Below, one piece after another: positions 17,406-64,000 of a stretch of DNA of 64,000 nt. The number at the start of each line of letters is the position of its first letter. Position 1 is the stretch's first letter. Both the position numbers and the translations under genes were made by a program. The notes beneath the pieces are model-generated. The model had not been told where the DNA came from, searched no databases, and saw only the letters and a program-made list of their open reading frames with translations. This DNA is from Eledone cirrhosa (Eukaryota): NCBI GenBank assembly GCA_964016885.1, contig OZ024743.1, positions 3,844,001 through 3,908,000 of the forward strand, read 5' to 3'.

Positions 17406-17483
17406 CGAAATATCTTCGAACATACACATACTCTTAGACACACACACATTTCTCACTCTTAGTACGGCTGATACTTAAATATA

Positions 17484-17618
17484 AGTATGTATGCGTACAT
17501 ACATATATGTATACAGACGTACAGTAGTATGTATGCGTACATACATATATGTATACAGACGTACAGTAGTATGTATGCGTACATACATATATGTATACAG
17601 ACGTACAGTAGTATGTAT
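17484..17618. repeat. 42-bp minisatellite, about 3.2 copies
   Basis: agtatgtatgcgtacatacatatatgtatacagacgtacagt repeated exactly. Confidence 0.92.
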
Positions 17619-17747
17619 GAAATGGGGTAATTTATGGGAATAATATCATTATATATTTATAAGATATAAATATTTTTTTATAAGAATATACGTATGCATG
17701 ATTTTTTTACATTTAGTATGATTCAGTATGTATGAATATATATATGT

Positions 17748-17789
<42 letters not shown>

Positions 17790-17791
<2 letters not shown>

Positions 17792-19152
17792 AGAGTATTG
17801 AAGTTTGCTTGAAGCATTGTGGAACAATAAGTAAATATCTTTAAGTCGTTTGGAAGCCTCGACAATGCAAATGGGTAAATCTCCGGGTAACAAGGTCCGG
17901 TGGTGGAGAGAGAGATGTAAGTGGGTGTACGTTGAGAAGCGTGGTGTGTATAAGATGTGTGAGATGTGTAGAATGAAGGGAAGAGTATAAAGGATAAAAT
18001 TAAAATAACAACACAAGAGAGAGTTACCTTGGGAGAGATTTAATAGTCCCTATATATTTCGGATTCACATCCATCAACTGGGGTTTTTTCCGGGGTGGCG
18101 GAAAAGGTTGTCTGTCGGACAAGTCCGGAACGCGTCCTTCGCTGTTTGTTGTTTTGAATATCTGAGGTATTCGGCCGAGCGCGCGTTCGCGTGAAATGGG
18201 GTCGGTCGTACAGACCGCACATACGTCGTGTATAAGATAGAATGTGACAGGTGCAACCAATACTACATAGGTAGCATAATTCGACCTTTGCACATCCGGA
18301 TCAAGGAACACACTAAAACCAGGGCCTCGTCTTTCCGTAAACACATAGACAAATGCGGAAACAAAGACGGAAGGCCCATTGTCACAATTCTAGCGACTGA
18401 AAGAAACGTCGGCACGTTACGTATCAAGGAAGCGCTTTTTATCAAACGTCTGCAACCGCAAATAAACAACCGATCAGAGAGAAGCGAAATGAGATGGCTG
18501 GTTTAAGTTAACAAGCGATGCAACAACACACAACACACGCACACACACACGCAAACGAGACAACTAGACACACACACGCACACACACACAGTAGCATTCC
18601 ACCATACGAACATAATACACTGCCAATACAGAGGAACAAGGCAACAACACACGCACACACACACACTCAAGCGAAACAACAACACACGCACACGCACACA
18701 CAGTAACATTTAACAAACAGGCAGAGAATGGACTGACAGCTAGCGCCATCCCACTCCCTCATTCGGCCGCTGACCTCTGTACGACCAACCCCATTTCACG
18801 CGCACGCGCGCTCGGCCGAATACCTCAGATATTCAAAACAACAAACAGTGAAGGACGCGTTCCGGACTTGTCCGACACACAACCTTTTCCCCCACCCCGG
18901 AATAAACCCCAGTTGATGGATGTGAATCCGAAATATATAGGGACTATTAAATCTCTCCAAAGGTAACTCTCTTGTGTTGTTATTTTAATTTTATCCTTTA
19001 TACTCTTCCCTTCATTCTACACATCTCACACATCTTATACACACCATGCTTCTCAACGTACACCCACTTACATCTCTCTCTCTCCACCACCGGACCTTGT
19101 TACCCGGAGATTTACCCATTTGCATTGTCGAGGCTTCCAAACGACTTAAATA

Positions 19153-19158
<6 letters not shown>
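17790..19158 (+). mobile_element. PLE remnant: GIY-YIG fragment (18215-18506) flanked by inverted pseudo-LTRs (17832-18214 / 18776-19158)
   Basis: VYKIECDRCNQYYIG...IRIKEH...IKEALFI...PQIN. Arms of ~380 bp are reverse complements. (TA)n on both sides. Confidence 0.9.
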
Positions 19159-19231
<73 letters not shown>

Positions 19232-19813: not shown

Positions 19814-20116
19814 TATAAAACGAAAAATCAGTGATGCATCTGAACTCATTTATTGTGTGTTACAATTGTTTCGTCGGCGGACAGCTCGAGACGCCATCAT
19901 TGTGTGGATCTGTCTGATTCTGGACCCCATGTTCGACGGACACGTCTAATGATTTGGCAGCATATTCTTCCACTGGGAAGAATATCATTAGACGTGTCCA
20001 TCGAACCTGCAGGTCCAGAATCAGACAGATCCACACAATGATGGCGTCTCGAGCTGTCCGCCGGCGAAACAATTGTAACACACAATAAATGAGTTCTGAT
20101 GCATCACTGATTTTTC

Positions 20117-20124
<8 letters not shown>
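19814..20124. repeat. Fold-back inverted repeat (~140-bp arms)
   Basis: tataaaacgaaaaatcagtgatgc... pairs with ...gcatcactgatttttcgttttata. The same peptide appears on both strands in the ORF track. Confidence 0.92.
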
Positions 20125-21587: not shown

Positions 21588-21629
21588 TATATAAATATAT
21601 ACCTATATATATATATACATATATATATA

Positions 21630-23338
21630 TTTATTAAAATAACAGATTAAAGTTTAAGCAAAGAATCGCTGAAAACAAATAACGAAACGGAATTAAATTT
21701 TGTTTCGTTTGTAACTCACTTTTGTATGACTGACGCTTAAACAATTAAGTTAAAAATGTACATCCACATATGTATACTGAAATACTAGTATGCATATGAT
21801 TACACACACGTATACATATGTAGATGTACCGAGTTTTTCACTGGTCACTTTACTGTGAGTGTCCAGCTATTCTGTATGTAAACACACAGACAAACCGGTT
21901 TTTAGAGTCATACAGGTTTTTGAGGAAACACCTTTCCTCTATTCTCAGAAAGCCAGACAAGGAATATTGAACTAGTTTCGATGTTGTTACATCTCATCAG
22001 CAATATTTACCTATCTTCCGGCCTCTCTAGATATCTTCTGAAACTAACAAAGTCAATCTGTAAACGCAGAACTGGATATTTCAAAAAACGTTGCAACCGG
22101 AGGAAAACAGGAAGACGATACTTTGGTTCGTGGAAACGTTCGCTGGCAAAGAACGGGAAAAAACGAATAATACGTCATTAATAGGAGCGGTGAAAAACAA
22201 TTACGCGCAAAGACAGAACCACGTTTATGGTATAAAAGAGGTCGTAGACTAATGTTCTCTTAGGTGGTGCATAGAAACGTTCTCTGGCAATGAATGAAAA
22301 AACGAAGATAATAAGTCATATGTGGAGCGTTGAGAACAATAGCACGCAAAGACAAAACCACGTAAATGGTATTGCAGACGTCGTAGACTAAAATTCTAAA
22401 TAGGAGACCAAATGAATCTCCGCTACAGAGTTAAGAACAAAGTAAATAAATACAATACATAAGTAATAGAAATAAATAAATACATACACGCAAACAAATA
22501 CGTACAATCGCAAGCATACGCAAAACCTTACCATAGGTATACAAAACCACGCACATATAAATATGTGTGTGTGTGTGTGTATGCTTGTGTACAAATAAAT
22601 AAATAATTATATAAACGTATATAAGTAAATAAATACGTATATAACAAGCGCACACACATACCTACATATAAATACACGAATGTTCGGAGACGTAAGTCAA
22701 CTAAAACAAGAAGTACACATATACACACACCCACCGTACGTACGAACCTTCATACTCACGCAGACGCAAAACTCCCGTATACACATAGCCAAACCATAAA
22801 TACCCGAATATATAAAAATTATACGCCATAACAATCAAATATACGTACGAGAAGGTATACATACCTTCACAAAACATACGGGTAATATATACTTACCTAT
22901 GCAAATAAGTAAAGGAATAAACAAAACATATACTTAGCTCCCACATCAAGACGTAAAATATCCACGTATAGATCGTACTATCCGTTAGGGTATAACGTGG
23001 GGCTGTAATACAGGAAAGTTTTGTGCAATTTATGTTTACAAGCCGAAATTGCCTCAGATTTTTTGTTTAAGATGTGTTCTGTGGCGTAGTGTATTTCCAG
23101 GGCCTCAGCGGCGCAAAGGTCACATGGTCTTTTATTTCCGTTATACGATCTAGCCCTAGCTAGGATCTCCCAGTGTAACTTATATTGGGTGTGGTTGTCT
23201 TTTAGACTCCAGATATAAGCTGAAAGTGACGTCATATTCCTTCTTAGAGGGTAACGAAAAGAATGGGTATGCAAGTAAAGACGCTGCTTGAAACTATTGG
23301 CGGTTAACCCTATGTAGGCCCTACGGGACGTGGGTGTT
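21630..23338 (-). mobile_element. 5'-truncated PLE: GIY-YIG 3' end plus long 3' region containing a partial 465-bp monomer, ending aataaa(TA)n
   Basis: ORF 22978-23274 (SLSAYIWSLK...CDLC...ILNKKSE...CKH) is near-identical to the C-terminus of ORF 56770-57594. Segment 21672-22026 matches the array unit. Confidence 0.88.
21963..22007 (-). ncRNA. Minimal type I hammerhead ribozyme, solo copy with compensatory stem II
   Basis: AAUAUUG-CUGAUGA-GAUGU aaca ACAUC-GAAA-CUAG-UU-CAAUAUU. The U-A pair of the array copies is A-U here. Confidence 0.93.
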
Positions 23339-23445
23339 TGCTCTACGGTTCTTATATATTTGATATATATTTATCCTTATCGAGCCCTCTTTGGATTTTA
23401 GTCTTCAATTTTATTATTATTACTATACATATATATATATATATA

Positions 23446-23719: not shown

Positions 23720-23781
<62 letters not shown>

Positions 23782-25392
23782 TAACAGATATTAAAGTTTA
23801 AGCAAAGAATCTGTTATTTTAATAAATACGTGATCTAGGGTTCTTATATATTTGATATATATTTATCCTTATCGAGCTCTTTTTGGATTTTAGTCTCCAA
23901 ATTTATTATTATTACTATATATATATATGTTTATCTCGGGCTCAATCGGGGGTAACGACAGTAAGTAAGACAAAGCAGAGTATAAATATTTAATATAGAA
24001 AGGCTTCTACAAGACTAGAACTAGGGCTTCCCGATGATTTCTCCCGAAGTCTTTCTATATTAAATATATATATATATATATATGGAAAGTTATATTTAAA
24101 TTGTTGGGTTACAACTAGTAAATATTTATAACTGATATAAAAGCACTCGACAAGTATTTGGAGTATATTTACGATATTAAATAAATGGAAACTATATTTA
24201 TAAAACCATATTTATTTCATTATATATATTTCAGGGATATCATATTAACAATATGCTATGCCTTCCTCAGACAAAATACAATATAAACAGTTTTATAGAT
24301 AAATAGATTTGACATACCGTACAACATCGACTATATTGAAAATATCAGTATTCAGGAAGTATCTCATTCAGGAATACTGATATTTTCAATATAGTGCCTG
24401 GTTTTTATACATATTAATACTTCTACATTAAAACATAGGGTTTTTATGCCTCGCCTATGTTTGGTTACTTTTCATTTTTCTCTCTATATAACAGCTGGTT
24501 TCTCTCCTAACCACATATATCTCCCTTACATTAATACTAGAGCTAAATAAATAAATAAATAAATAAATGTATCATTGATACGTTTACTCAACGGATGTCC
24601 AACTACATATTTTTCTATATATATATCTATCTCTATCTATTTCCTCTCTCTATATATATCTCTCTCTGTTTCTTTACATGAAGTTCTTCTCTTTATCTAT
24701 CTTTCCATCTCTCTCTTTTTTGTTCCATGCATTTCTTCTTTTTCTTCTTTTTCTTCGTTTTCTGTCTTTCTTTCCTTTTTTTCTCTCTTTCTTTCTTTCT
24801 GTTTACAATTTTTTCACTGCCAATTCAACTTTTCAAATACAAGTCGATGTTGTACGGTATGTCAAATCTATTTATCTATAAAACTGTTTATATTGTATTT
24901 TGTCTGAGGAAGGCATAGCATATTGTTAATATGATATCCCTGTAATATATATAATGAAATAAATATGGTTTTATAAATATAGTTTCCATTTATTTAATAT
25001 CGTAAATATACTCCAAATACTTGTCGAGTGCTTTTATATCAGTTATAAATATTTACTAATTGTAACCCAACAATTTAAATATAACTTTCCATATATATAT
25101 ATATATATATTTAATATAGAAAGACTTCGGGAGAAATCACCGGGAAGCCCTAGTTCTAGTCTTGTAGAAGCCTTTCTATATTAAATATTTATACTCTGCT
25201 TTGTCTTACTTACTGTCGTTACCCCCGATTGAGCCCGAGATAAACATATATATATATAGTAATAATAATAAATTTGGAGACTAAAATCCAAAAAGAGCTC
25301 GATAAGGATAAATATATATCAAATATATAAGAACCCTAGATCACGTATTTATTAAAATAACAGATTCTTTGCTTAAACTTTAATATCTGTTA

Positions 25393-25468
<76 letters not shown>

Positions 25469-25546
25469 ACCACCCCACTCTAAAGGGCGTGAAACTAATA
25501 AACCTTTGTTCGTACTGCCTCTCTGTTTTGTTCCCGTTCAATTTTT

Positions 25547-25550
<4 letters not shown>
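23638..25550. repeat. Large inverted duplication (arms 23638-24331 / 24842-25550)
   Basis: Arms of ~700 bp are near-identical reverse complements, including internal (TA)n tracts of different length. Confidence 0.93.
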
Positions 25551-25645: not shown

Positions 25646-25970
25646 AAAATGTTCGCTCTATATGGCTGAATACAATAAATATTATCTGAGGTTTTCAAAT
25701 ATTAATAATTGTTTCTACGTTAGGCACAAGGCCAGCAAATACCCAGTGTATTACTGGTACTTTATTTTATCGACCCCGTATGGATGAAAGGCAAAGTCGA
25801 TTCGTTTGCAATTATGCAAACAAGCCTCAATTCTACTGGTTCATTCTACTGACAGGGCTAAAACATTGAGGCTTGTTTGCATAATTGCGAACGAATCGAA
25901 TGTTATTATTAATATTCGAAAAACTCAGATTACATTTATTGTATTCATCCATGTAGAGCGAACATTTTCT
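25645..25970. repeat. Older fold-back repeat with a SINE fragment inserted in the left arm
   Basis: aagaaaatgttcgctcta / tagagcgaacattttctt and gattcgtttgcaattatgcaaacaagcctcaat / attgaggcttgtttgcataattgcgaacgaatc. Confidence 0.8.
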
Positions 25971-26372
25971 TTTTTATTTGAATTTGGCAAAGCCGGCCAT
26001 TCATCGCTCGTATACAGGAAACTGACTGGCCAGTCTGCTGATATACAAATCTGGCTGATCAATGGATCTACTAATATGTAGATCTGACTGATCAACCAGT
26101 CTGCTAATATGCAAATTAGGCCGATCAGTCAATGTGTATTTTTGAAAATAGCATATATTTTCAGTAGCTCTGACAGTTTGGCAGGTGAACAGTGAGCTGT
26201 ACTGATGAAGGGTGATACCCAGAAACATTAGTGTCTGCAGTTCTGTTCACATGCCAACACACAAGAGCAAGAATGAAGGGTTCATTCTACTGACATGGCT
26301 ATAAAATTGAGGCTTGTTTGCATAATTGCAAACTAATCGAATGTTATTAATATTCGAAAAACTCAGATTATA

Positions 26373-26431
<59 letters not shown>

Positions 26432-26439
<8 letters not shown>

Positions 26440-26782
26440 ATACTTTGGGAGGGTCATGTTGCCAATAAGAAACATACGCACCAGTTGCTTTCACTTCAAT
26501 TTATTATATATTTATAAATTTATAAATCTACAAATCTACAAACTTATAAATTTCCGGTTGGTTGGTTGGTTCCACAACCAGATAGTTGTTTATATATAGT
26601 CATAGTCCTTTCGTCACACACTCTGTGACCTCTTCAGTGACTGGGGATTCCTTTCTTTGTTTCTGTGCCTTTCCTTTCTTCTGTCCTACGCCATTTTGTT
26701 TCTGTGTGTGTGTTGTGTGCTCAGTTTGCGCATGCGCCACATCCGGGTGTCTGTGTGTGTTTGTGTTCATTTATCTATTTGT

Positions 26783-26813
<31 letters not shown>

Positions 26814-27509
26814 CCTTCAAGAAAATAAAGAATCATCTGTGCTCTACCAACATGCTAAGATAGAGCACAAGGGTAAATTAGAGAACATAGAAATAAAAAT
26901 AGAATCCGCACACAGAAAAGATGCAATGTTTAGGCAAATTACAGAGGCAGTAAGCATAAAAGAATTACAACCAAAATTAAATAGAAAATATGAGTGGAAC
27001 AGCAACATCACAACTTACAATTAAGGACAAAATGAAAACACACACACACATAGAACAAACAACCAACCAACAACATGTAAATAAATAAATAAATAAATAA
27101 ATAAACAAATAGATAAATGAACACAAACACACACAGACACCCGGATGTGGCGCATGCGCAAACTGAGCACACAACACACACACAGAAACAAAATGGCGTA
27201 GGACAGAAGAAAGGAAAGGCACAGAAACAAAGAAAGGAATCCCCAGTCACTGAAGAGGTCACAAAGTGTGTGACGAAAGGACTATGACTATATATAAACA
27301 ACTATCTGGTTGTGGAACCAACCAACCAACCAGAAATTTATAAGTTTGTAGATTTGTAGATTTATAAATTTATAAATATATAATAAATTGAAGTGAAAGC
27401 AACTGGTGCGTGTGTTTCTTATTGGCAACATGACCCTCCCAAAGTATAACAATATCGGTTTCAACACACGATTTCAGATAAAGAATCTTGCTAAACAAAT
27501 TCAGAAACG

Positions 27510-37569: not shown

Positions 37570-37572
<3 letters not shown>

Positions 37573-38170
37573 ATGTAATTGCAGAGACCCATCACTATGC
37601 CCCCTTAGTAATGAATGCATGACGAAAAATGTAGTCTACAGGTGCAAGGTCACAACCCCTAACTCGGAGCACCACTACATAGGATCCACAACGACGAGCT
37701 TCAAAGATCGGTGGTATAACCATCGCCATTTCTTTAACAGAATAGATAAGAGGAAATGTACGGCCCTTTCTGAATTGATCTGGAAGCTCAAACTTGAAAA
37801 GACCCCGCACTCTCTGGTCTGGTCCGTGGTTAGAAAGGCTCCCCCAGACAGAGGCGGGTCTGGTATTTGCAACCTCTGTCTTAGTGAGACACTCGAAATA
37901 CTTCATGGCGGAACCAAGCTATTAAACAGAAGGGTCGACTTATTCGGTGCCTGCAGACACCTAAGGACGGGAATTTTCCTCAAGCTATATGGATAAACCC
38001 CGGTTAAGGCCTCCCACAACGCCTCCTCCCACTGTAGGTCCCCTACACCCTGTACCAATGACCAATGGACAACAACAACCACCCATAGTTTGTGGTCCCT
38101 ATGGTGGATGGTCTACCGGATCCTCTACTGGTTAGGAGTCATCAAAACCACGTTTTATTGAACCTGATTT
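37570..38170 (+). mobile_element. 5'-truncated PLE: GIY-YIG endonuclease plus 3' UTR, within (TA)n
   Basis: CNCRDPSLCPL, then ORF 37619-37996 with VYRC...YIG...CNLC...LLN. Confidence 0.9.
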
Positions 38171-43327: not shown

Positions 43328-43656
43328 TGTATACCAACGGGCTTTAAATGTATTCCCAGTCGCTCCGATGTAATACCATTTCTGGTTGTCTGATTCCACT
43401 GTGCATTGGTAAACCAGGTTAGACTGCATACATTTATTATGTAATGGACAGGTTTCAGGTAGGTGGCAGTTACAATTCTTGTCATTGGCAACTTTGGCAT
43501 TATTGGTGGGCTGCGATGCCTGTGCAAGTGTGTTACGTTTTGTTTGCCTATTAGTCGGTGTTGTGTATTAGATATTCTGTTGTGTTCAATGGTGATTGTA
43601 TTGTTATTGTTGTAAATTTGTGTTCTGGTGTTGTTATGTATCTTTTTAGCGTTAAG
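43328..43656 (-). repeat. Inverted copy of the PLE linker/GIY-YIG segment (45284-45612) at the element's 5' truncation
   Basis: Minus-strand ORFs 43258-43659 and 43085-43429 reproduce the peptides encoded at 45284-45612. Confidence 0.9.
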
Positions 43657-43659
43657 CAT

Positions 43660-45900
43660 CTTCCATTTCGATAAAGGACGTCATGGTCGCGCCGTGGAAT
43701 ACAACAAGGAAACATACGGCTTCAAATCGTGCAAGAACCCACCTGACAACCTTCAACTGGCTGCCTTTGAACAGGACTTACTAAAGATGATTATGAACAT
43801 CAAATTAAAAAATCGGAGGAATAATAAACTCCAGAATGACATAAATACATTCCTAAAAAAGCTGCGAACCACCAATGGAATTATTGTCAAAGCGGACAAA
43901 ACATCAAATGTGTATACGATGGATGTTAATACATACAATAGCTTCATACGGAAGGAATTACATAGGAAATACAAAAAAACTAATGAGGCGGCACTGATAA
44001 ACATCAACAACGAGGCACACAATATAGTCAAACACCTAGGAATAGACGGCAGAACGGAGCCACTTAGGCCATGTACCCCCACATTTAATCTCAAGGACCA
44101 CAAGGTAAATTTTGATTATAACCCCACAATTAGACTTATATGCCCGTCCAAATCGGACATCGGGAAAATTAGTAAACATATATTAGACAAAGTGATAGCA
44201 CAAATGAAGAATAAACTAGTGATTAAACTATGGGGTAACGCTACCGAAACAATTAAGTGATTTAACAATATAGCTAACAAAGAAGTATCTAAATTTATAC
44301 AATTTGACATTAACGACTATTACTCTTCTATATCCCCCAACATCTTGGATAAAGCCTTAGCATTCGCCAAAGCCAATTATGACCTAACAGACGACGAGAT
44401 AAAAATCATATTAGCTGCTAGGAAAACAATAATTAAATTTGAAAACGCCTATTGGGAACGTAAGGATAGATTAAATAACTTTGACATCACGATGGGGGCG
44501 AACGACTCGCCTCAAGTCACAGATTTAGTAGGTATTTACATAGCCCATAGTTTACAAAGTGAGTTTAGCGACCTTCACGGTGGAATCTACAGAGACGACG
44601 CCCTTCTCCTAGTTAAGAACCTAAATAACCAGAGCATAGAAAGACTCCGTAAGAATATTAGAAAGACTCTCGGGAAACTAGGTCTTAGCATAACGTATGA
44701 GTATAGCACTAAAACAGTTAACTTTCTAGACGCGACGCTTAACCTAAATACGGGACTTATAAGACCTTTTCACAAGATTAATGAAAACTTAGCATACATC
44801 AACTGTAACTCAAACCACCCACTATCAATAATTAAATCCATTCCACGCAGCATATCCCTTAGGATCTCCCGCCTCTCGTCTAACCGACAAATCTTCGAAG
44901 AACATGCAGAATACTACAATACCGCATTAGACAAGGCAGGCCACTTAGATAGAGTACAATATATAGATGAAGCCTCAGTAAAGCGCACACGAACACGCAT
45001 AACACAAACTCGCAAAACACGCACACACGCACTTACGCATAGAACTATAAAGTATACGGTAAATAGAAATACAACATCGAAATCAAACAAGTCACGCAGT
45101 AGAAAATATATTTGGTATAACCCCATATTTAACACCTCTATTAGTACTAACCTACCCTCTACCTTCTTTAGAATAATAAATAAGCACTTTCCAGATTCAC
45201 ATAGATACAGCAAAATCTTTAACACTAACTCTATTAGACTATCTTACTCCACGGCACCAAATATAGAGGCACACATTAAGATCCTTAACGCTAAAAAGAT
45301 ACATAACAACACCAGAACACAAATTTACAACATTAACAATACAATCACGATTGAACACAACAGAATATCTAATATACAACACCGATTAATAGGCAAACAA
45401 AACGTAACACACTTGCACAGGCATCGCAGCCCACCAATAATATCAAAGTTGCCCATGACAAGAATTGTAACTGCCACCTACCTGAAACCTGTCCATTACA
45501 TAATAAATGTATGCAGTCTAACCTGGTTTACCAATGCACAGTGGAATCAGACAACCAGAAATGGTATTACATCGGAGCGACTGGGAATACATTTAAAGCC
45601 CGTTGGTATACACACCGTTACGCTATGAAACATTCCCAGCATCGTTATGTAACTGCCCTTGCAAACAAGACCTGGCAACTGAGGGAAAGTAACCATCAAT
45701 ACACCCTGAAGTGGAAAAAATTATCAAACGCGCCCTCATATCGGAGTGGTATGAGAAGCTGTCGATTATGCGACCTTGAGCTGTTCCAGATCTTGAGTTC
45801 GAAGAATAAGTTACTCAACAATAAAATCTAAAGATCAATTTATTGTAACCATAGACTCAAAGAGAAGTTTTCGCACTACAAGTGCAAATCGAACCCTTAA
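43660..45900 (+). mobile_element. Penelope-like retroelement pol pseudogene (RT + Cys-rich linker + GIY-YIG), probably Naiad-like
   Basis: Motifs IIVKADKT, FIQFDINDYYSSI, FDITMG, IYRDD, VNFLD, SNHP, CNC-x5-CPL, VYQC...YIG and CRLC. One in-frame TGA at 44258, a linker frameshift, and a TAA at 45829. Clade call is inference from motifs. Confidence 0.93.
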
Positions 45901-46856: not shown

Positions 46857-47185
46857 CATATATGTATATATATATATGTATAAAAACAAATAACGAAACG
46901 AAATTTAATTTCGTTTCGTTTGTAACTCACTTTTGTATGACTGACGCTTAGTGACGCTTAAACAATTAAGTTAAAAATGTACATCCACATATGTATACTG
47001 AAATACTAGTATGCATATGAATACACACACGTATACATATGTAGATGTACCAAGTTTTTCACTGGTCACTTTACTGTGAGTGTCCAGCTATTCTGTATGT
47101 AAACACACAGACAAACCGGTTTTTTAGAGTCATACTGGTTTTTGAGGAACCACCTTTCCTCTATTCTCCAGAAAGCCAGACAAGG

Positions 47186-47230
47186 AATATTGAACTAGTT
47201 TCGTTGTTGTTACAACTCATCAGCAATATT
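47186..47230 (-). ncRNA. Minimal type I hammerhead ribozyme (first of 10 identical copies)
   Basis: Minus strand reads AAUAUUG-CUGAUGA-GUUGU aaca ACAAC-GAAA-C ua G-UU|CAAUAUU: 7-bp stem I, canonical core, 5-bp stem II, palindromic ACUAGU stem III, GUU cleavage triplet. Confidence 0.93.
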
Positions 47231-50200
47231 TACCTATCTTCCGGCCTTTCTGGAGAGTCGTAAAAGCACATATCGTTATATGCTTTTTCTATGAAAATTA
47301 GTAGTGGGCAGACTAATTTGCATAGAGCGTGAGTACGTACCGGTTCAACGGAGACGATAAAAACAAATAACGAACCGAAATTAAATTTCGTTTCGTTTGT
47401 AACTCACTTTTGTATGACTGACGCTTAAACAATTAAGTTAAAAATGTACATCCACATATGTATACTGAAATACTAGTATGCATATGAATACACACACGTA
47501 TACATATGTAGATGTACCAAGTTTTTCACTGGTCACTTTACTGTGAGTGTCCAGATATTCTGTATGTAAACACACAGACAAACCGGTTTTAGAGTCATAC
47601 TGGTTTTTGAGGAAACACCTTTCCTCTATTCTCCAGAAAGCCAGACAAGGAATATTGAACTAGTTTCGTTGTTGTTACAACTCATCAGCAATATTTACCT
47701 ATCTTCCGGCCTTTCTGGAGAATCGTAAAAGCACATATCGTTATATGCTTTTTCTATGAAAATTAGTAGTGGGCAGACTAATTTGCATAGAGCGTGAGTA
47801 CGTACCGGTTCAACGGAGACGATAAAAACAAATAACGAAACGAAATTAAATTTCGTTTCGTTTGTAACTCACTTTTGTATGACTGACGCTTAAACAATTA
47901 AGTTAAAAATGTACATCCACATATGTATACTGAAATACTAGTATGCATATGAATACACACACGTATACATATGTAGATGTACCAAGTTTTTCACTGGTCA
48001 CTTTACTGTGAGTGTCCAGCTATTCTGTATGTAAACACACAGCCAAGCGGGTTTTTAGAGTCATACTGGTTTTTGAGGAAACACCTTTCCTCTATTCTCC
48101 AGAAAGCCAGACAAGGAATATTGAACTAGTTTCGTTGTTGTTACAACTCATCAGCAATATTTACCTATCTTCCGGCCTTTCTGGAGAATCGTAAAAGCAC
48201 ATATCGTTATATGCTTTTTCTATGAAAATTAGTAGTGGGCAGACTAATTTGCATAGAGCGTGAGTACGTACCGGTTCAACGGAGACGATAAAAACAAATA
48301 ACGAAACGAAATTAAATTTCGTTTCGTTTGTAACTCACTTTTGTATGACTGACGCTTAAACAATTAAGTTAAAAATGTACATCCACATATGTATACTGAA
48401 ATACTAGTATGCATATGAATACACACACGTATACATATGTAGATGTACCAAGTTTTTCACTGGTCACTCTACTGTGAGTGTCCAGCTATTCTGTATGTAA
48501 ACACACAGACAAACCGGTTTTAGAGTCATACTGGTTTTTGAGGAAACACCTTTCCTCTATTCTCCAGAAAGCCAGACAAGGAATATTGAACTAGTTTCGT
48601 TGTTGTTACAACTCATCAGCAATATTTACCTATCTTCCGGCCTTTCTGGAGAATCGTAAAAGCACATATCGTTATATGCTTTTTCTATGAAAATTAGTAG
48701 TGGGCAGACTAATTTGCATAGAGCGTGAGTACGTACCGGTTCAACGGAGACGATAAAAACAAATAACGAAACGAAATTAAATTTCGTTTCGTTTGTAACT
48801 CACTTTTGTATGACTGACGCTTAAACAATTAAGTTAAAAATGTACATCCACATATGTATACTGAAATACTAGTATGCATATGAATACACAAACGTATACA
48901 TATGTAGATGTACCAAGTTTTTCACTGGTCACTTTACTGTGAGTGTCCAGCTATTCTGTATGTAAACACACAGACAAACCGGTTTTAGAGTCATACTGGT
49001 TTTTGAGGAAACACCTTTCCTCTCTTCTCCAGAAAGCCAGACAAGGAATATTGAACTAGTTTCGTTGTTGTTACAACTCATCAGCAATATTTACCTATCT
49101 TCCGGCCTTTCTGGAGAATCGTAAAAGCACATATCGTTATATGCTTTTTCTATGAAAATTAGTAGTGGGCAGACTAATTTGCATAGAGCGTGAGTACGTA
49201 CCGGTTCAACGGAGACGATAAAAACAAATAACGAAACGAAATTAAATTTCGTTTCGTTTGTAACTCACTTTTGTATGACTGACGCTTAAACAATTAAGTT
49301 AAAAATGTACATCCACATATGTATACTGAAATACTAGTATGCATATGAATACACACACGTATACATATGTAGATGTACCAAGTTTTTCACTGGTCACTTT
49401 ACTGTGAGTGTCCAGCTATTCTGTATGTAAACACACAGCCAAGCGGGTTTTTAGAGTCATACTGGTTTTTGAGGAAACACCTTTCCTCTATTCTCCAGAA
49501 AGCCAGACAAGGAATATTGAACTAGTTTCGTTGTTGTTACAACTCATCAGCAATATTTACCTATCTTCCGGCCTTTCTGGAGAATCGTAAAAGCACATAT
49601 CGTTATATGCTTTTTCTATGAAAATTAGTAGTGGGCAGACTAATTTGCATAGAGCGTGAGTACGTACCGGTTCAACGGAGACGATAAAAACAAATAACGA
49701 AACGAAATTAAATTTCGTTTCGTTTGTAACTCACTTTTGTATGACTGACGCTTAAACAATTAAGTTAAAAATGTACATCCACATATGTATACTGAAATAC
49801 TAGTATGCATATGAATACACACACGTATACATATGTAGATGTACCAAGTTTTTCACTGGTCACTCTACTGTGAGTGTCCAGCTATTCTGTATGTAAACAC
49901 ACAGACAAACCGGTTTTAGAGTCATACTGGTTTTTGAGGAAACACCTTTCCTCTATTCTCCAGAAAGCCAGACAAGGAATATTGAACTAGTTTCGTTGTT
50001 GTTACAACTCATCAGCAATATTTACCTATCTTCCGGCCTTTCTGGAGAATCGTAAAAGCACATATCGTTATATGCTTTTTCTATGAAAATTAGTAGTGGG
50101 CAGACTAATTTGCATAGAGCGTGAGTACGTACCGGTTCAACGGAGACGATAAAAACAAATAACGAAACGAAATTAAATTTCGTTTCGTTTGTAACTCACT

Positions 50201-51372
50201 TTTGTATGACTGACGCTTAAACAATTAAGTTAAAAATGTACATCCACATATGTATACTGAAATACTAGTATGCATATGAATACACACACGTATACATATG
50301 TAGATGTACCAAGTTTTTCACTGGTCACTCTACTGTGAGTGTCCAGCTATTCTGTATGTAAACACACAGACAAACCGGTTTTAGAGTCATACTGGTTTTT
50401 GAGGAAACACCTTTCCTCTATTCTCCAGAAAGCCAGACAAGGAATATTGAACTAGTTTCGTTGTTGTTACAACTCATCAGCAATATTTACCTATCTTCCG
50501 GCCTTTCTGGAGAATCGTAAAAGCACATATCGTTATATGCTTTTTCTATGAAAATTAGTAGTGGGCAGACTAATTTGCATAGAGCGTGAGTACGTACCGG
50601 TTCAACGGAGACGATAAAAACAAATAACGAAACGAAATTAAATTTCGTTTCGTTTGTAACTCACTTTTGTATGACTGACGCTTAAACAATTAAGTTAAAA
50701 ATGTACATCCACATATGTATACTGAAATACTAGTATGCATATGAATACACACACGTATACATATGTAGATGTACCAAGTTTTTCACTGGTCACTCTACTG
50801 TGAGTGTCCAGCTATTCTGTATGTAAACACACAGACAAACCGGTTTTAGAGTCATACTGGTTTTTGAGGAAACACCTTTCCTCTATTCTCCAGAAAGCCA
50901 GACAAGGAATATTGAACTAGTTTCGTTGTTGTTACAACTCATCAGCAATATTTACCTATCTTCCGGCCTTTCTGGAGAATCGTAAAAGCACATATCGTTA
51001 TATGCTTTTTCTATGAAAATTAGTAGTGGGCAGACTAATTTGCATAGAGCGTGAGTACGTACCGGTTCAACGGAGACGATAAAAACAAATAACGAAACGA
51101 AATTAAATTTCGTTTCGTTTGTAACTCACTTTTGTATGACTGACGCTTAAACAATTAAGTTAAAAATGTACATCCACATATGTATACTGAAATACTAGTA
51201 TGCATATGAATACACAAACGTATACATATGTAGATGTACCAAGTTTTTCACTGGTCACTTTACTGTGAGTGTCCAGCTATTCTGTATGTAAACACACAGA
51301 CAAACCGGTTTTAGAGTCATACTGGTTTTTGAGGAAACACCTTTCCTCTCTTCTCCAGAAAGCCAGACAAGG

Positions 51373-51417
51373 AATATTGAACTAGTTTCGTTGTTGTTAC
51401 AACTCATCAGCAATATT
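51373..51417 (-). ncRNA. Minimal type I hammerhead ribozyme (last array copy)
   Basis: Same 45-nt sequence as 47186-47230. Confidence 0.93.
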
Positions 51418-51673
51418 TACCTATCTTCCGGCCTTTCTGGAGAATCGTAAAAGCACATATCGTTATATGCTTTTTCTATGAAAATTAGTAGTGGGCAGAC
51501 TAATTTGCATAGAGCGTGAGTACGTACCGGTTCAACGGAGACGATAAAAACAAATAACGAAACGAAATTAAATTTCGTTTCGTTTGTAACTCACTTTTGT
51601 ATGACTGACGCTTAAACAATTAAGTTAAAAATGTACATCCACATATGTATGTATATATATATATATATGTATA

Positions 51674-53370: not shown

Positions 53371-53481
53371 ATATATAATATTAAGGATACTAGTTATGTA
53401 TATTTTAAACTTTTTATAGTTATGTATATTTTAAACCATAAACAGGGAAGGTCAGTAATTTATTACTACCTTATTACCAAG

Positions 53482-54993
53482 GATACGCATAACAACTTTG
53501 ACATAACCATGGGATCTAGTGACTCGGCGCAGGTCACTGATTTGGTGGGCCTATACCTATTAAACGAAATCCATAAGGACCTACTATACCTCAACGGTGG
53601 TTTGTACCGCGATGATGCACTACTCCTTATAGACTATAACAAATTTAATATAGAAAGAACTAGGAAACTATTGCATAAGACTTTCAAAAACTATAACCTA
53701 AGTTTCACCATAGACAAAAACACTAAAAACGTTAACTTCCTTGATGCCACTTTTTACCTAGACTCTAAAATATATACACCATTCCATAAACCTAACGAAA
53801 AACTAATTTACGTAGATACCAAGTCTAACTACCCCAGATCAATATTAAACTCTATCTCAAAAGGAATATCAAATAGAATCTCTAATCTATCTTATAACGA
53901 AACCATATTTAGCAAAAACTCACAATACTATAATCAGGCATTAGCTAGATCAGGACATAATAATGAGATCGAGTTCCTACCTATAAAAACACATAGTTAC
54001 AACATTATTTCTCACAATAGGAAAAATAGTAATAAGAGTAATAACCACACACACACTAATACGAAGGGTAGCAACAAACGTAACTCACACCAGAGAAGAC
54101 ACCAAAATACCATAAACGGAAACACCTCAACAGATATAAAAAACAAAAATAGAAGAACTAATACATTTTTCAACCCCCCTTTCAATTTAAACGTCTCTAC
54201 CAACCTACCTAAGGCTTTCTTCTCACTCCTGTATAAAGACTTCCCATCTGGCCACAAGTGCCATAGTCTTATAAATAAAAACACCATTAAAATCTCCTAC
54301 TCTACCACGCCTAACATAGCATACCACATAGCTAGTAGCAATAAAAGAAAGATTAATACTTACTTTCAACAAACCAAAACACAGCAGGGGGTAAACTTTC
54401 AAAACAACGTAATATCTGCAAACCCTGATATCAATAGTAATAATAGTAATAACACTAATGAAATCAATAACAATGGGAGCGACAACCTCATAGCTATAAT
54501 GCAATACCTAGCAACCAGACTTCTACACAACATAATAACCGACAGGTTAGCATCCAAAATAATTGTAACTGTAGATCTAATAGAACCTGCCCTTTAGATA
54601 AAAAGTGCTTAATCAAGGACATCATCTACTCATGCACGGTCAGAACTAGCAACTCTTCTGAAACCGATATAGGCTCTACTTCGAACTGCTTCAAAACCAG
54701 ATACAATTCACATCTCCATTCTTTCAAAAAACACAGTGTGGCCAACTCCACTTCACTATCTAGCTACATACATTATCTGAAAACTAGAAATATATCACAT
54801 ACACTTCGATGGGAAGTGATAGGTAAGGTGGCATCGTACAGACCATCTAATAAATTCTGTAACCTCTGTCTACTAGAGACCCATACTATAATCTTCTCAA
54901 ACCTTAAACTCCTTAATAAAAAAATCGGATGTGTTTGCGTCGTGCCAGCACCGATTCCGGTACTCCTTCCAAAACTTTAAACCCAATATATAA
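53482..54993 (+). mobile_element. 5'-truncated PLE pol pseudogene (RT + GIY-YIG); 3' region probably extends to ~56550
   Basis: FDITMGSSDSAQV, LYRDDAL, VNFLD; after a frameshift CNCRSNRTCPL, IIYSC...DIG and CNLC. Confidence 0.92.
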
Positions 54994-56547
54994 CAATGTC
55001 AGACTTGAACCCATCACCGCTTCTAACACCACACCTCAAGGGCATGCCTTACACCACTACACCACACTCTCTGATCCAACCTTCCCTCGACACAAATCAT
55101 TCTATCTATCTATAACTTTATACCCTAGAAATATCCCCATAAACACCAACTTTTAATATAATTACTTTCAATTACTTAGAAGTATATAGTGATAGAAATA
55201 TAATACAGTCTATATAAACTTTAAATACTAGATACGGCAGTGAATTATATATGCAATTGTAATTAAATGTATGGAGTAATAACATTAGATATATATATAG
55301 GATTAATTTATTAACATAAGGGATCTGTCTAACTTATGTGTAGGGTGGTGCAATGAATTATATATGAATTATATATGCATGTATAACTTGATGGATAGAT
55401 TAATGACATTGTAAATGAGCGGGATGTATTGTCTACCCAAGAGATGTATTTGATTTTGTCATGCAAACAGCCATACGCTGCTCCATAACTTACCAGGGGT
55501 TATGTAGACAAAATTCTAATAGGTCCTCTGATATGTTTTGAGAGTAGACTGTATTTACAGTGAACTTTGATATAAAGATATGGCACTTTGTATGGAAAAT
55601 TCAATTATAGCACTATATAATAAAGAGTCAACTTCCTATAGATACCTTTAATACATTATGATAGAGTAGACTGTATTTAGAATTGAAAATTAGATATAAA
55701 TATATAACCTTTTATATAAGGGACTCAATTGAGGCACCATATAATGTATGTTAGAACAATGAATTTAGTTATGAGAATCATCTAGTTACCCCCTCTTACG
55801 CATTAACTCCCCTTAGTTACACACCTACTTCCGGGTAATAAACCACTGTAAATTCTCGTAGCAGAAATAACCTATTCTATAAATATGGATTAAATAACAC
55901 TGAGCCTCAATACGCTACAATAATTTAATACATCAAACATTCAATACGGAATCATCGTAACTTATGTGATGGATGTAAAAAATGTGAAAATGGTGGTGGA
56001 TGCGAAAACTATCACTTTATTTTCTTTTTCTTTTTTTTTCTTTTTCTTTTTCTTTTTCTTTTTCTTTTTCTTTTTCTTTTTCTGCACACATACTTTTTTG
56101 ATCTATACAAAAAATACCCTACCACTACAACCACCATAATACTCTTGCTTACCCGCTTAAAGTGCTTGCATTACATGTAACACCTTGCCACACAATAATC
56201 GTATATAAATGAGACACACTTGCATGCTCCACGTGTAACTAACGCATACACTACCTACTAGATCTGACTATCAAACTATCCTTTTGCATTATCTGTGTTA
56301 TCTGCCGAATGTATTTTAATTTTGATTTTGATTTTGAATTTGAATTGCTGTACAAATATAGTATAATATATGTCACTCCACTGTACATCAATATATATAT
56401 ATATGTATCTGTATGTCTCTTGCGTTGGATAGGAGGTCAATTATATGTACAAACATTGAAAAATGCTCCGAAGATCCCAAGCCTAGGTTTGGATGAAACA
56501 ATTGTAAGTGAATAAATGTTTGAACATAGTTTGATTCTTGTGAATTC

Positions 56548-56579
<32 letters not shown>

Positions 56580-56704
56580 GTAATAATAATAAAATTGAAG
56601 AAGATCCCGTAAAGGGTGAAAGCAGCGATTCTTTGCTTAAACTTTAATCTGTTATTTTAATAAATATATATATATATATATAGTAATAATAATAAATTTC
56701 AAGA

Positions 56705-57839
56705 CTTACATAAGTAAGCATTCCAACCATCCTGCCAGCATAACCAAGAACCTGGTAAGAAACGTTTCGTTGAGGCTTTCCCGTCTTTCCACCAACGAGC
56801 GTATTTTCAACGACCATTCCACTTATTACAATGAAGCTCTTGCACGAAGTGGATTTGTCGATAAGGTAGCATATACAGAGTACGAAAATAGACCTAGAAG
56901 AAATAGATCCCGTCGCATTTGTTGGTATAACCCACCATATAATATGGAGGTGGCCACACCTTTAGCTAAGATCTTTCTGTCCCTTATTACGAAGCATTTT
57001 CCCCCTACACATAAGTATAGTAAAATGTTTAATAGAAATACTATTAAAATTTCTTACTCTACGACTCCTAACCTTGCACATAACATCACAGCTTCAAATT
57101 TAGCTAAACTACCTAGCCGTAGGAAAACGTGCAACCCTGTAGTTAGTACTAACTGTAATTGTAGGAATCGGGTTGATTGCCCCCTATCCGGGAAATGCCT
57201 CTCTAGTAACATTGTCTACAAATGTAAGGTTGTAACACCCACGTCCCGTAGGGCCTACATAGGGTTAACCGCCAATAGTTTCAAGCAGCGTCTTTACACG
57301 CATACCCATTCTTTTCGTTACCCTCTAAGAAGGAATATGACGTCACTTTCAGCTTATATCTGGAGTCTAAAAGATAACCACACCCAATATAAGTTACACT
57401 GGGAGATCCTAGATAGGGCTAGATCGTATAACGGAAATAAAAGACCATGTGACCTCTGCGCCGCTGAGGCCCTGGAAATACTCTACGCCACAGACCACAT
57501 CTTAAACAAAAAATCTGAGGCAATTTCGGCTTGTAAACATAAATTGCACAAAACTTTCCTGTATTACAGCCCCACGTTATACCCTAACGGATAGTACGAT
57601 CTATACGTGGATATTTTACGTCTTGATGTGGGAGCTAAGTATATGTTTTGTTTATACCATTATTTATTTGCATAGCGAACGTTTCCACGAACCAAAGTAT
57701 CGTCTTCCTGTCTTCCTCCGGTTGCAACGTTTTTTGAAATATCCACTTCTGCGTTTACAGATTGACTTTATTAGTTTCATAAGATCCCGTTAAGGGTGAA
57801 AGCAGCGATTCTTTGCTTAAACTTTAATCTGTTATTTTA

Positions 57840-57845
<6 letters not shown>
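56705..57845 (+). mobile_element. 5'-truncated PLE (RT C-terminal region + intact GIY-YIG), ending aataaa(TA)n
   Basis: ORF 56770-57594: WYNPPY, CNCRNRVDCPL, VYKC...YIG, CDLC. SNHP motif lies just upstream. Flanked by (TA)n. Confidence 0.93.
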
Positions 57846-63314: not shown

Positions 63315-63554
63315 AATGAGTAGCACCCCGACGGCTGAGCTCAAGCCGTTTCGACGGCTAATTCTGGACTAAATGAACATTTTTATCCTGGTAAATGAAT
63401 AGCCGAGCTTTTCAGGGGGTAATATTCCATATATGATAAAAGTGATTGTCACAAGGATTGGTCAAAAGTTTGTTGTTGATACACATAATTCTATCATGGC
63501 ATTTTGTGGAAGGAAGGGGTAGCTGAACTTGCCAGTAGAAGAAAGTCCCTAACC

Positions 63555-64000
63555 CGAGTAAACTTCCTGGACGTTACCCTTGACCTCGATAATGATCTGT
63601 ACTACCAATACAGGAAACCAAACGATAACCTGCACTACATCCACCGCCGGTCAAACCATCCTAGAAACATCAACAATAACCTGGTTAAAAAGATATCCCT
63701 CCGCATATCTCGTTTGTCCGCTAATGAGCAGATATTCGACGAACATGCGCCTTATTACAACCAGGCCCTCAGGCGGAGTGGCTTCCGGGAGGAAATATCC
63801 TACTGTCCAGCTTCCATTAGCGGAACCAGCAGGCGACACCGCCGCTCACGCAACGTAATATGGTTCAATCCTCCCCACAACGCCGAGGTGACAAAAAACA
63901 CTTCCCACTACAACACCGCTACCAAAACATAATCAACAAAAATACCATCAAACTCTCCTACAGCACCACACCTAACTTTGCACAAAACATCGTCTCCTCT
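63555..64000 (+). mobile_element. PLE RT C-terminal fragment running to the window edge
   Basis: VNFLDVTLDL...YRKPND...SNHP...WFNPP, homologous to the other PLE ORFs here. Confidence 0.88.

Follow-up and report, generated by a model that had tools for sequence, protein, structure and literature searches.

Structure of the Hybrid Locus

The window, by which we mean the whole 64,000-nucleotide stretch of Eledone cirrhosa DNA that was analysed, contains a hybrid repeat (locus A) in which part of a 465-bp retrozyme monomer lies within the 3' region of a Penelope-like element (PLE). The PLE is one 5'-truncated copy of the Hydra clade, and the retrozyme piece takes the place of 17 bp of it, in the sense of its open reading frame (ORF). 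Read along the minus strand, the order is GIY-YIG endonuclease remnant, 3' untranslated region (UTR) with its intron, 110-bp exon, an extra base (22032, relative to the sibling copy in the window), 360-bp monomer piece, 42 nt of PLE, and (TA)n (Table 1). The first-pass annotation had recognized a monomer piece in this position and orientation; self-BLAST confirms it and sets its length at 360 bp instead of about 355. The intact type I hammerhead motif of the piece is on the same minus strand as the GIY-YIG frame, and the 17 bp missing from locus A correspond to stem II and the GAAA of the PLE's own hammerhead-like motif.

Table 1. Coordinates of the repeats that make up locus A and of related copies in the window
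Feature	Position	Strand	Remarks
Locus A, whole PLE element	21630-23423		Inverted 3' tail at 23339-23423; direct repeat on both flanks
Hydra PLE, final 42 nt, short 3' end abutting (TA)n	21630..21671	-	100% to 57803-57843; native context 30,649 times
Retrozyme piece, 360 bp, unit positions 103-462 of 465	21672..22031	-	1 substitution and 1 gap to nearest copies
Predicted type I hammerhead motif (CUGAUGA / 5-bp stem II / GAAA / palindromic ACUAGU)	21962..22007	-	Cleavage predicted
PLE 3' exon, 110 bp	22033..22142	-	Terminates in CAGAAGA, first half of the PLE's non-canonical hammerhead-like motif
GT-AG intron of PLE 3' UTR, 754 bp, kept at locus A	22143..22896	-	Sequence; gone from sibling
PLE GIY-YIG endonuclease, C-terminal remnant, 119 aa	22978..23338	-	97.7% DNA identity to sibling
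Inverted copy of long 3' tail of PLE, second arm of insertion	23339..23423	+	
Direct repeat around whole locus A insertion	Left copy 21614..21629, right copy 23424-23439		Length blurred by (TA)n
465-bp retrozyme array, 10.2 units	46880..51650	-	Same family as locus A piece; long end in (TA)n; 5'-truncated
Sibling Hydra PLE copy	56601..57844	+	5'-truncated; intron precisely absent; native 17 bp present

The sibling PLE has the flanks that the first-pass annotation ascribed to it and, at 57786-57802, exactly the 17 nt quoted there, but only three blocks (442, 122, and 41 bp) are common to the two copies, and the sibling also lacks the 754-bp intron. The retrozyme piece matches every unit of the in-window array at 96.4-96.7% (93.8% for the first unit; self-BLAST). 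It is separated by one substitution from its nearest copies on other chromosomes and by about 3.5% from the array, a divergence that assigns it to a different subfamily; the proximity of piece and array is therefore due to chance, and the piece did not derive from its neighbour. A second haplotype of locus A was not found in the assembly.

The chimeric junction (21669-21690) yields an acceptor-like site, and the monomer has a donor-like site at about 22013; splicing at these candidate sites would take out the captured hammerhead. Despite such sites, the monomer was rejected as a second PLE intron, given the unique junction and the relatives with the native 17 bp.

The Retrozyme Family

The 465-bp repeat is classed by its sequence as a non-LTR retrozyme, with predicted self-cleavage. 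Its units are non-coding, tandem with a 465-bp period, and dispersed. A type I hammerhead is predicted in all ten full array units (10/10) and in locus A, with the core sequences CUGAUGA and GAAA in 454 and 456, respectively, of 461 occurrences, a total in which overlapping loci are counted more than once. Across 51 distinct variants, one pair of stem II reads A-U 29 times and U-A 21 times, and stem III is palindromic in every unit, a form said to require dimers (PMC4209133). An Rfam search gave no hammerhead at gathering score. The monomer is self-paired when folded as a circle (-163.6 kcal/mol, a value without shuffle control).

With its non-coding tandem monomers, each bearing a single type I hammerhead, its low GC content and strong self-pairing, and PLEs as its proposed carriers, the family resembles the non-LTR retrozymes of metazoans (Cervera and de la Pena 2020, PMC7229834; Li, Clavereau, Pollet 2026, bioRxiv 10.64898/2026.07.22.740005). 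It differs from them in length (465 nt versus 170-400 nt in invertebrates) and in lacking detectable likeness to the neighbouring PLE terminus; the fixed double 3' ends, inverted arms, and PLE-embedded copy seen here have no description in the accessible portions of those two papers.

Exact long 3' ends of the retrozyme followed by TA occur at 2,163 sites, and 63 of 66 long ends lie in (TA)n. Among the first 100 of the 2,163, 83 were traceable to the far end, which was an inverted arm stopping at a second fixed site in TA in 55 cases, other TA in 14, and non-TA in 14. The two fixed 3' ends are 68 nt apart. Insertions into AT-rich, non-microsatellite targets carry duplications of 11-13 bp (loci L005, L013, L408, and L409), and where such flanks are readable, six of seven insertions show a duplication (four by script; L406 and L092 by eye), with none in L093. 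What looked like one non-TA retrozyme end (L193/L405) proved to be a chance 19-nt match and was discarded.

Members of the family are up to about 11% diverged, and a sister family exists. The latter has units of about 500 nt that are 62-65% identical to the 465-bp repeat (L055:2199-2697; window 17452-17620; L043, L100), and it carries a U-U base to stem II, as in PLE hammerheads. The segment 17452-17564 of the window, tried as a PLE terminus, proved to be a piece of this sister retrozyme.

The Host PLE Family

The host PLE family is large and young. Its native junction has 30,649 exact copies in the genome, and a search for an intact full-length ORF found stop-free frames of at least 706 aa in 13 of 132 scored matches. 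L069, a full-length copy, carries a tandem terminus upstream and a frame of 713 aa, a single ORF in which reverse transcriptase (RT; YRDD) is followed by a C-terminal GIY-YIG domain (AYIGLT). The CxCX5C linker reads CNCRNRADC, and the endonuclease (EN) motifs CxxC and CxH read CDLC and CKH. Pfam and PDB searches with the 713-aa frame gave no match. A (TA)n target, tandem or inverted termini, and a tail are all present in the family; copies stop at two sites 88 nt apart, and the target duplication is about 12 bp in the one clear case (L047).

The 754-bp intron in the 3' UTR is genuine and is retained by most copies of the family. PLEs are known for intron retention, and among 37 hits to an intron-junction pattern, which picks up one sequence variant only, 29 are unspliced, five exactly spliced, and three altered. 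Exact removal was seen in the window at 57675/57676 and elsewhere in the genome at G000 C3:353486047, C4:26181342, C14:9652273, and C2:49410741. The hammerhead-like motif of the host PLE (window 57770-57830), recognized by eye, has the core CAGAAGA in most copies seen, and energy folding did not return a hammerhead shape; the motif may be an inactive or a tolerated variant.

By these sequence features the family fits the Hydra clade of C-terminal EN+ PLEs (Craig et al. 2021, PMC8557442), with which it has in common the order RT then GIY-YIG, the CxCX5C linker, the CxxC and CxH motifs, the (TA)n target, the inverted 5' arm, and the optional tail. Apparent differences from the clade are a longer tail (88 nt versus 30-40), the non-canonical CAGAAGA hammerhead core, a 3' UTR intron that has been spliced out of some copies, and, in the single copy scanned, RWR and NKT where RWK and DKT are expected.

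Formation of the Chimera

The PLE-retrozyme junction of locus A occurs once in the genome, against the 30,649 PLE ends that are native, and a search that let as many as 30 unspecified bases separate the motifs found none besides locus A. Of 29 intron-matched relatives fetched, 26 were readable, and all 26 keep the native segment. A search of sampled loci for PLE copies interrupted by foreign sequence gave four, two with SINE-like inserts and overlap and two filled with TA, and none with a retrozyme. Locus A is real but solitary, a dead chimera of two element types that are already known.

The first-pass annotation offered a template switch onto retrozyme RNA as one explanation. In the form of a single integration, during which the RT jumped from PLE RNA to retrozyme RNA and back, this is plausible and has perhaps an even chance of being correct; it is slightly favoured over its close rival, a later repair-type insertion. 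What is seen directly is the three-part structure of the locus, the fact that it is unique, and a PLE-type footprint in retrozyme insertions. Copying would have started at the short end of the PLE in (TA)n. Once 42 nt had been copied, at the base of the hammerhead hairpin, the RT would have left the PLE template and resumed on retrozyme RNA at the latter's usual starting point; 360 nt later it would have re-entered the PLE RNA just beyond the hairpin through 2-3 nt of imperfect homology. Double template jumps are documented for LINEs (PMC2104539). Like the tripartite chimeric retrocopies made by LINE RT (Gogvadze et al. 2007, PMC2104539), locus A consists of pieces of different RNAs, in one sense, within one repeat-flanked insertion; it is unlike them in that the enzyme would be that of a PLE and in that the first and third pieces come from the same RNA.

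Several findings speak for such a double jump. Monomer and PLE run in the same sense. Breaks recur at the first junction: 10 of 30 inspected sites (from 887 hits) are true breaks at this base, and of 83 incidental PLE ends, 6 stop at 37-45 nt and 31 at 37-90 nt. Among 30 inspected sites at the second junction, three lack part of the hairpin region, or have other sequence instead, starting at the same base; 26 of the others are point changes and one runs into TA. The locus A piece has a 17-bp deletion, no duplication, and no TA at either junction, and so is without the ordinary endonuclease-driven marks, unlike the long ends in (TA)n and the duplication-bearing insertions counted above. Retrozyme joins to other elements that lack TA are also present (L006, L100, L108, and L110). 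The annotation had held that the link would fail if the monomer fragment bore independent insertion hallmarks and the arrays never had targets or junctions in common with this PLE. What was found is mostly otherwise, since the piece has neither a target-site duplication nor a TA target and the arrays and the PLE have (TA)n targets and end geometry in common.

Other findings speak against it. The sole junction of the locus A type is itself a returning one, coming back to the PLE within 17 nt, whereas none of the 10 true breaks at the first-junction base returns nearby, and a gap pattern with up to 30 free bases found no non-returning PLE-to-retrozyme junction. The end spacings differ, being 88 nt in the host PLE and 68 nt in the retrozyme. 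Compared with its nearest copy, the monomer has one substitution per 360 nt, versus 4, 5, 8, and 8 for four 360-nt segments of the PLE. For the whole parts, which were searched to unequal depth, the divergence is 26/1298 in the PLE and 1/360 in the monomer (Fisher p=0.018); the monomer looks somewhat younger than its host. Private changes alone, at 7/1339 and 0/360, do not differ significantly (p=0.36). Nesting at the margin of a TA run could account for the other direct retrozyme joins.

A more specific proposal, that the PLE RT exits at the hammerhead hairpin, switches to a circular retrozyme RNA at the start site belonging to that circle, and then returns, is tentative and on balance doubtful. 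If true, it would provide direct sequence evidence of a PLE enzyme recognizing retrozyme RNA and would name a young family with intact ORFs for a first test of PLE-driven retrozyme mobilization.

The alternative of a later insertion, to which we give somewhat less than an even chance, is that a break in the already integrated PLE was repaired, without normal endonuclease cutting and with loss of 17 bp, by a 5'-truncated retrozyme cDNA whose synthesis had begun at the normal 3' site; the host family would then be incidental. The piece does end at the standard 3' site (position 462 of 465, 3 nt before the long 3' end that is standard in the family), its flanks are colinear with a small deletion, and the lower divergence of the monomer is in keeping with a later arrival. 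A long TA run, which is what retrozymes prefer as a target, lies 42 bp away, and retrozymes do enter other repeats (L005 and L013). With more than 30,000 PLE ends, we estimate roughly that on the order of one retrozyme would land in the host family by chance, and the counts expected under the jump and insertion routes are, again roughly, of the same order. Deletion without duplication, and the lack of any endonuclease sign, also characterize endonuclease-independent L1 insertions (Sen et al. 2007, PMC1920257), from which the monomer piece differs in deriving from a non-autonomous RNA and in having a retroelement end as its host. Against a later insertion stand the duplications in six of the seven readable retrozyme insertions and the position of both junctions on the PLE hairpin, the first of them within the break-off zone.

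The second explanation in the annotation, that the retrozyme arose from a pseudo-LTR variant of the host PLE with locus A as its relic, is largely refuted and now highly improbable. In Xenopus, 24 of 57 retrozyme families match known transposable elements, mainly PLE termini (bioRxiv 10.64898/2026.07.22.740005), which favours an origin of this kind. Here it is unsupported, because the junction is a singleton, the readable relatives are all native, and local alignment of the monomer with the terminal region of the host PLE scores 26 against a shuffle mean of 30; comparisons with the host terminus and five other PLE regions gave shuffle-level scores only. The piece is, moreover, a copy from a young subfamily within a family whose divergence reaches about 11% and which has a sister family. 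An assembly artefact fusing two repeats is scarcely credible, given two junctions, colinear on both sides, within an insertion that has matching flanking repeats, although public contigs and RAD reads, dominated by other copies of the families, showed neither junction and no empty site, in runs of a kind that cannot show absence; no RNA run was listed among those containing the sequence.

Candidate Carriers of the Retrozyme

Mobilization of retrozymes by PLEs has already been proposed in print, from co-occurrence and terminal similarity: PLEs are described as strong candidate carriers (PMC7229834), and retrozymes are argued to derive from PLE termini (bioRxiv 10.64898/2026.07.22.740005). A literature search, with most subscription papers outside its coverage, found no publication that describes a retrozyme lying inside a PLE.

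The retrozyme family is very probably moved by Hydra-type PLE enzymes, since its two fixed 3' ends, inverted arms, (TA)n targets, and 11-13-bp duplications are features listed as PLE hallmarks (PMC8557442, PMC3846280). That the host PLE family is the main carrier seems unlikely. The claim that the chimera identifies a candidate autonomous partner however it arose was too strong: one junction stands against more than 30,000 PLE ends, none of the 83 resolved retrozyme insertions joins the host family, and none of the 14 non-TA far ends matches it. The claim is weakened further by direct joins to two other PLE ends and by another Hydra family that fits the end spacing better. The joins without TA are to the sister retrozyme (L006, L100), to the tail of this second Hydra family (L110), and to another PLE-type end that has a hammerhead (L108).

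The second Hydra family (L267, L289, L290) has 16,924 exact ends, a canonical CUGAUGA hammerhead, and an ORF 50% identical to that of the host PLE over 497 aa. Its end spacing, 68 nt, equals that of the retrozyme; in 30 loci the short end was seen in 6 and the long end in 8, with 4 others 3 nt longer. Spacings in other families are about 88-120 nt (few copies), and with some eight families compared, a chance match at 68 nt is quite possible. In searches with gap patterns, the retrozyme long end was joined to neither the short-end zone nor the tail of the second Hydra family, and once to the tail of the sister retrozyme. Duplication length does not separate the candidate carriers, being about 12 bp in both retrozyme and host PLE and unreadable in the second family.

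As one dead event, locus A points only weakly to the partner; the insertion footprint and the end-spacing match are better guides to the carrier. The genome combines young retrozyme arrays having PLE-type ends with at least two young Hydra families, one of which has intact ORFs, and the pairing of retrozyme and PLE is therefore directly testable in it.

Tails of several PLE families have an ACTC...GAGT stem in common, and in two Hydra families, as in some retrozyme units, the long end is followed by a CACTCT-like motif. The window also contains a near-perfect 260-bp palindrome between TA runs (19860-20120) and a 1.6-kb palindrome (23777-25397) comprising ends of several PLE families and one hammerhead-like motif; the segment 23639-23721 recurs inverted at 25467-25549. 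At least six more PLE remnants, several of them Hydra-like and most flanked by (TA)n, are located at 17732-19231, 25650-27500, 37571-37996, 43616-45831, 53380-56545, and 63330-63932.
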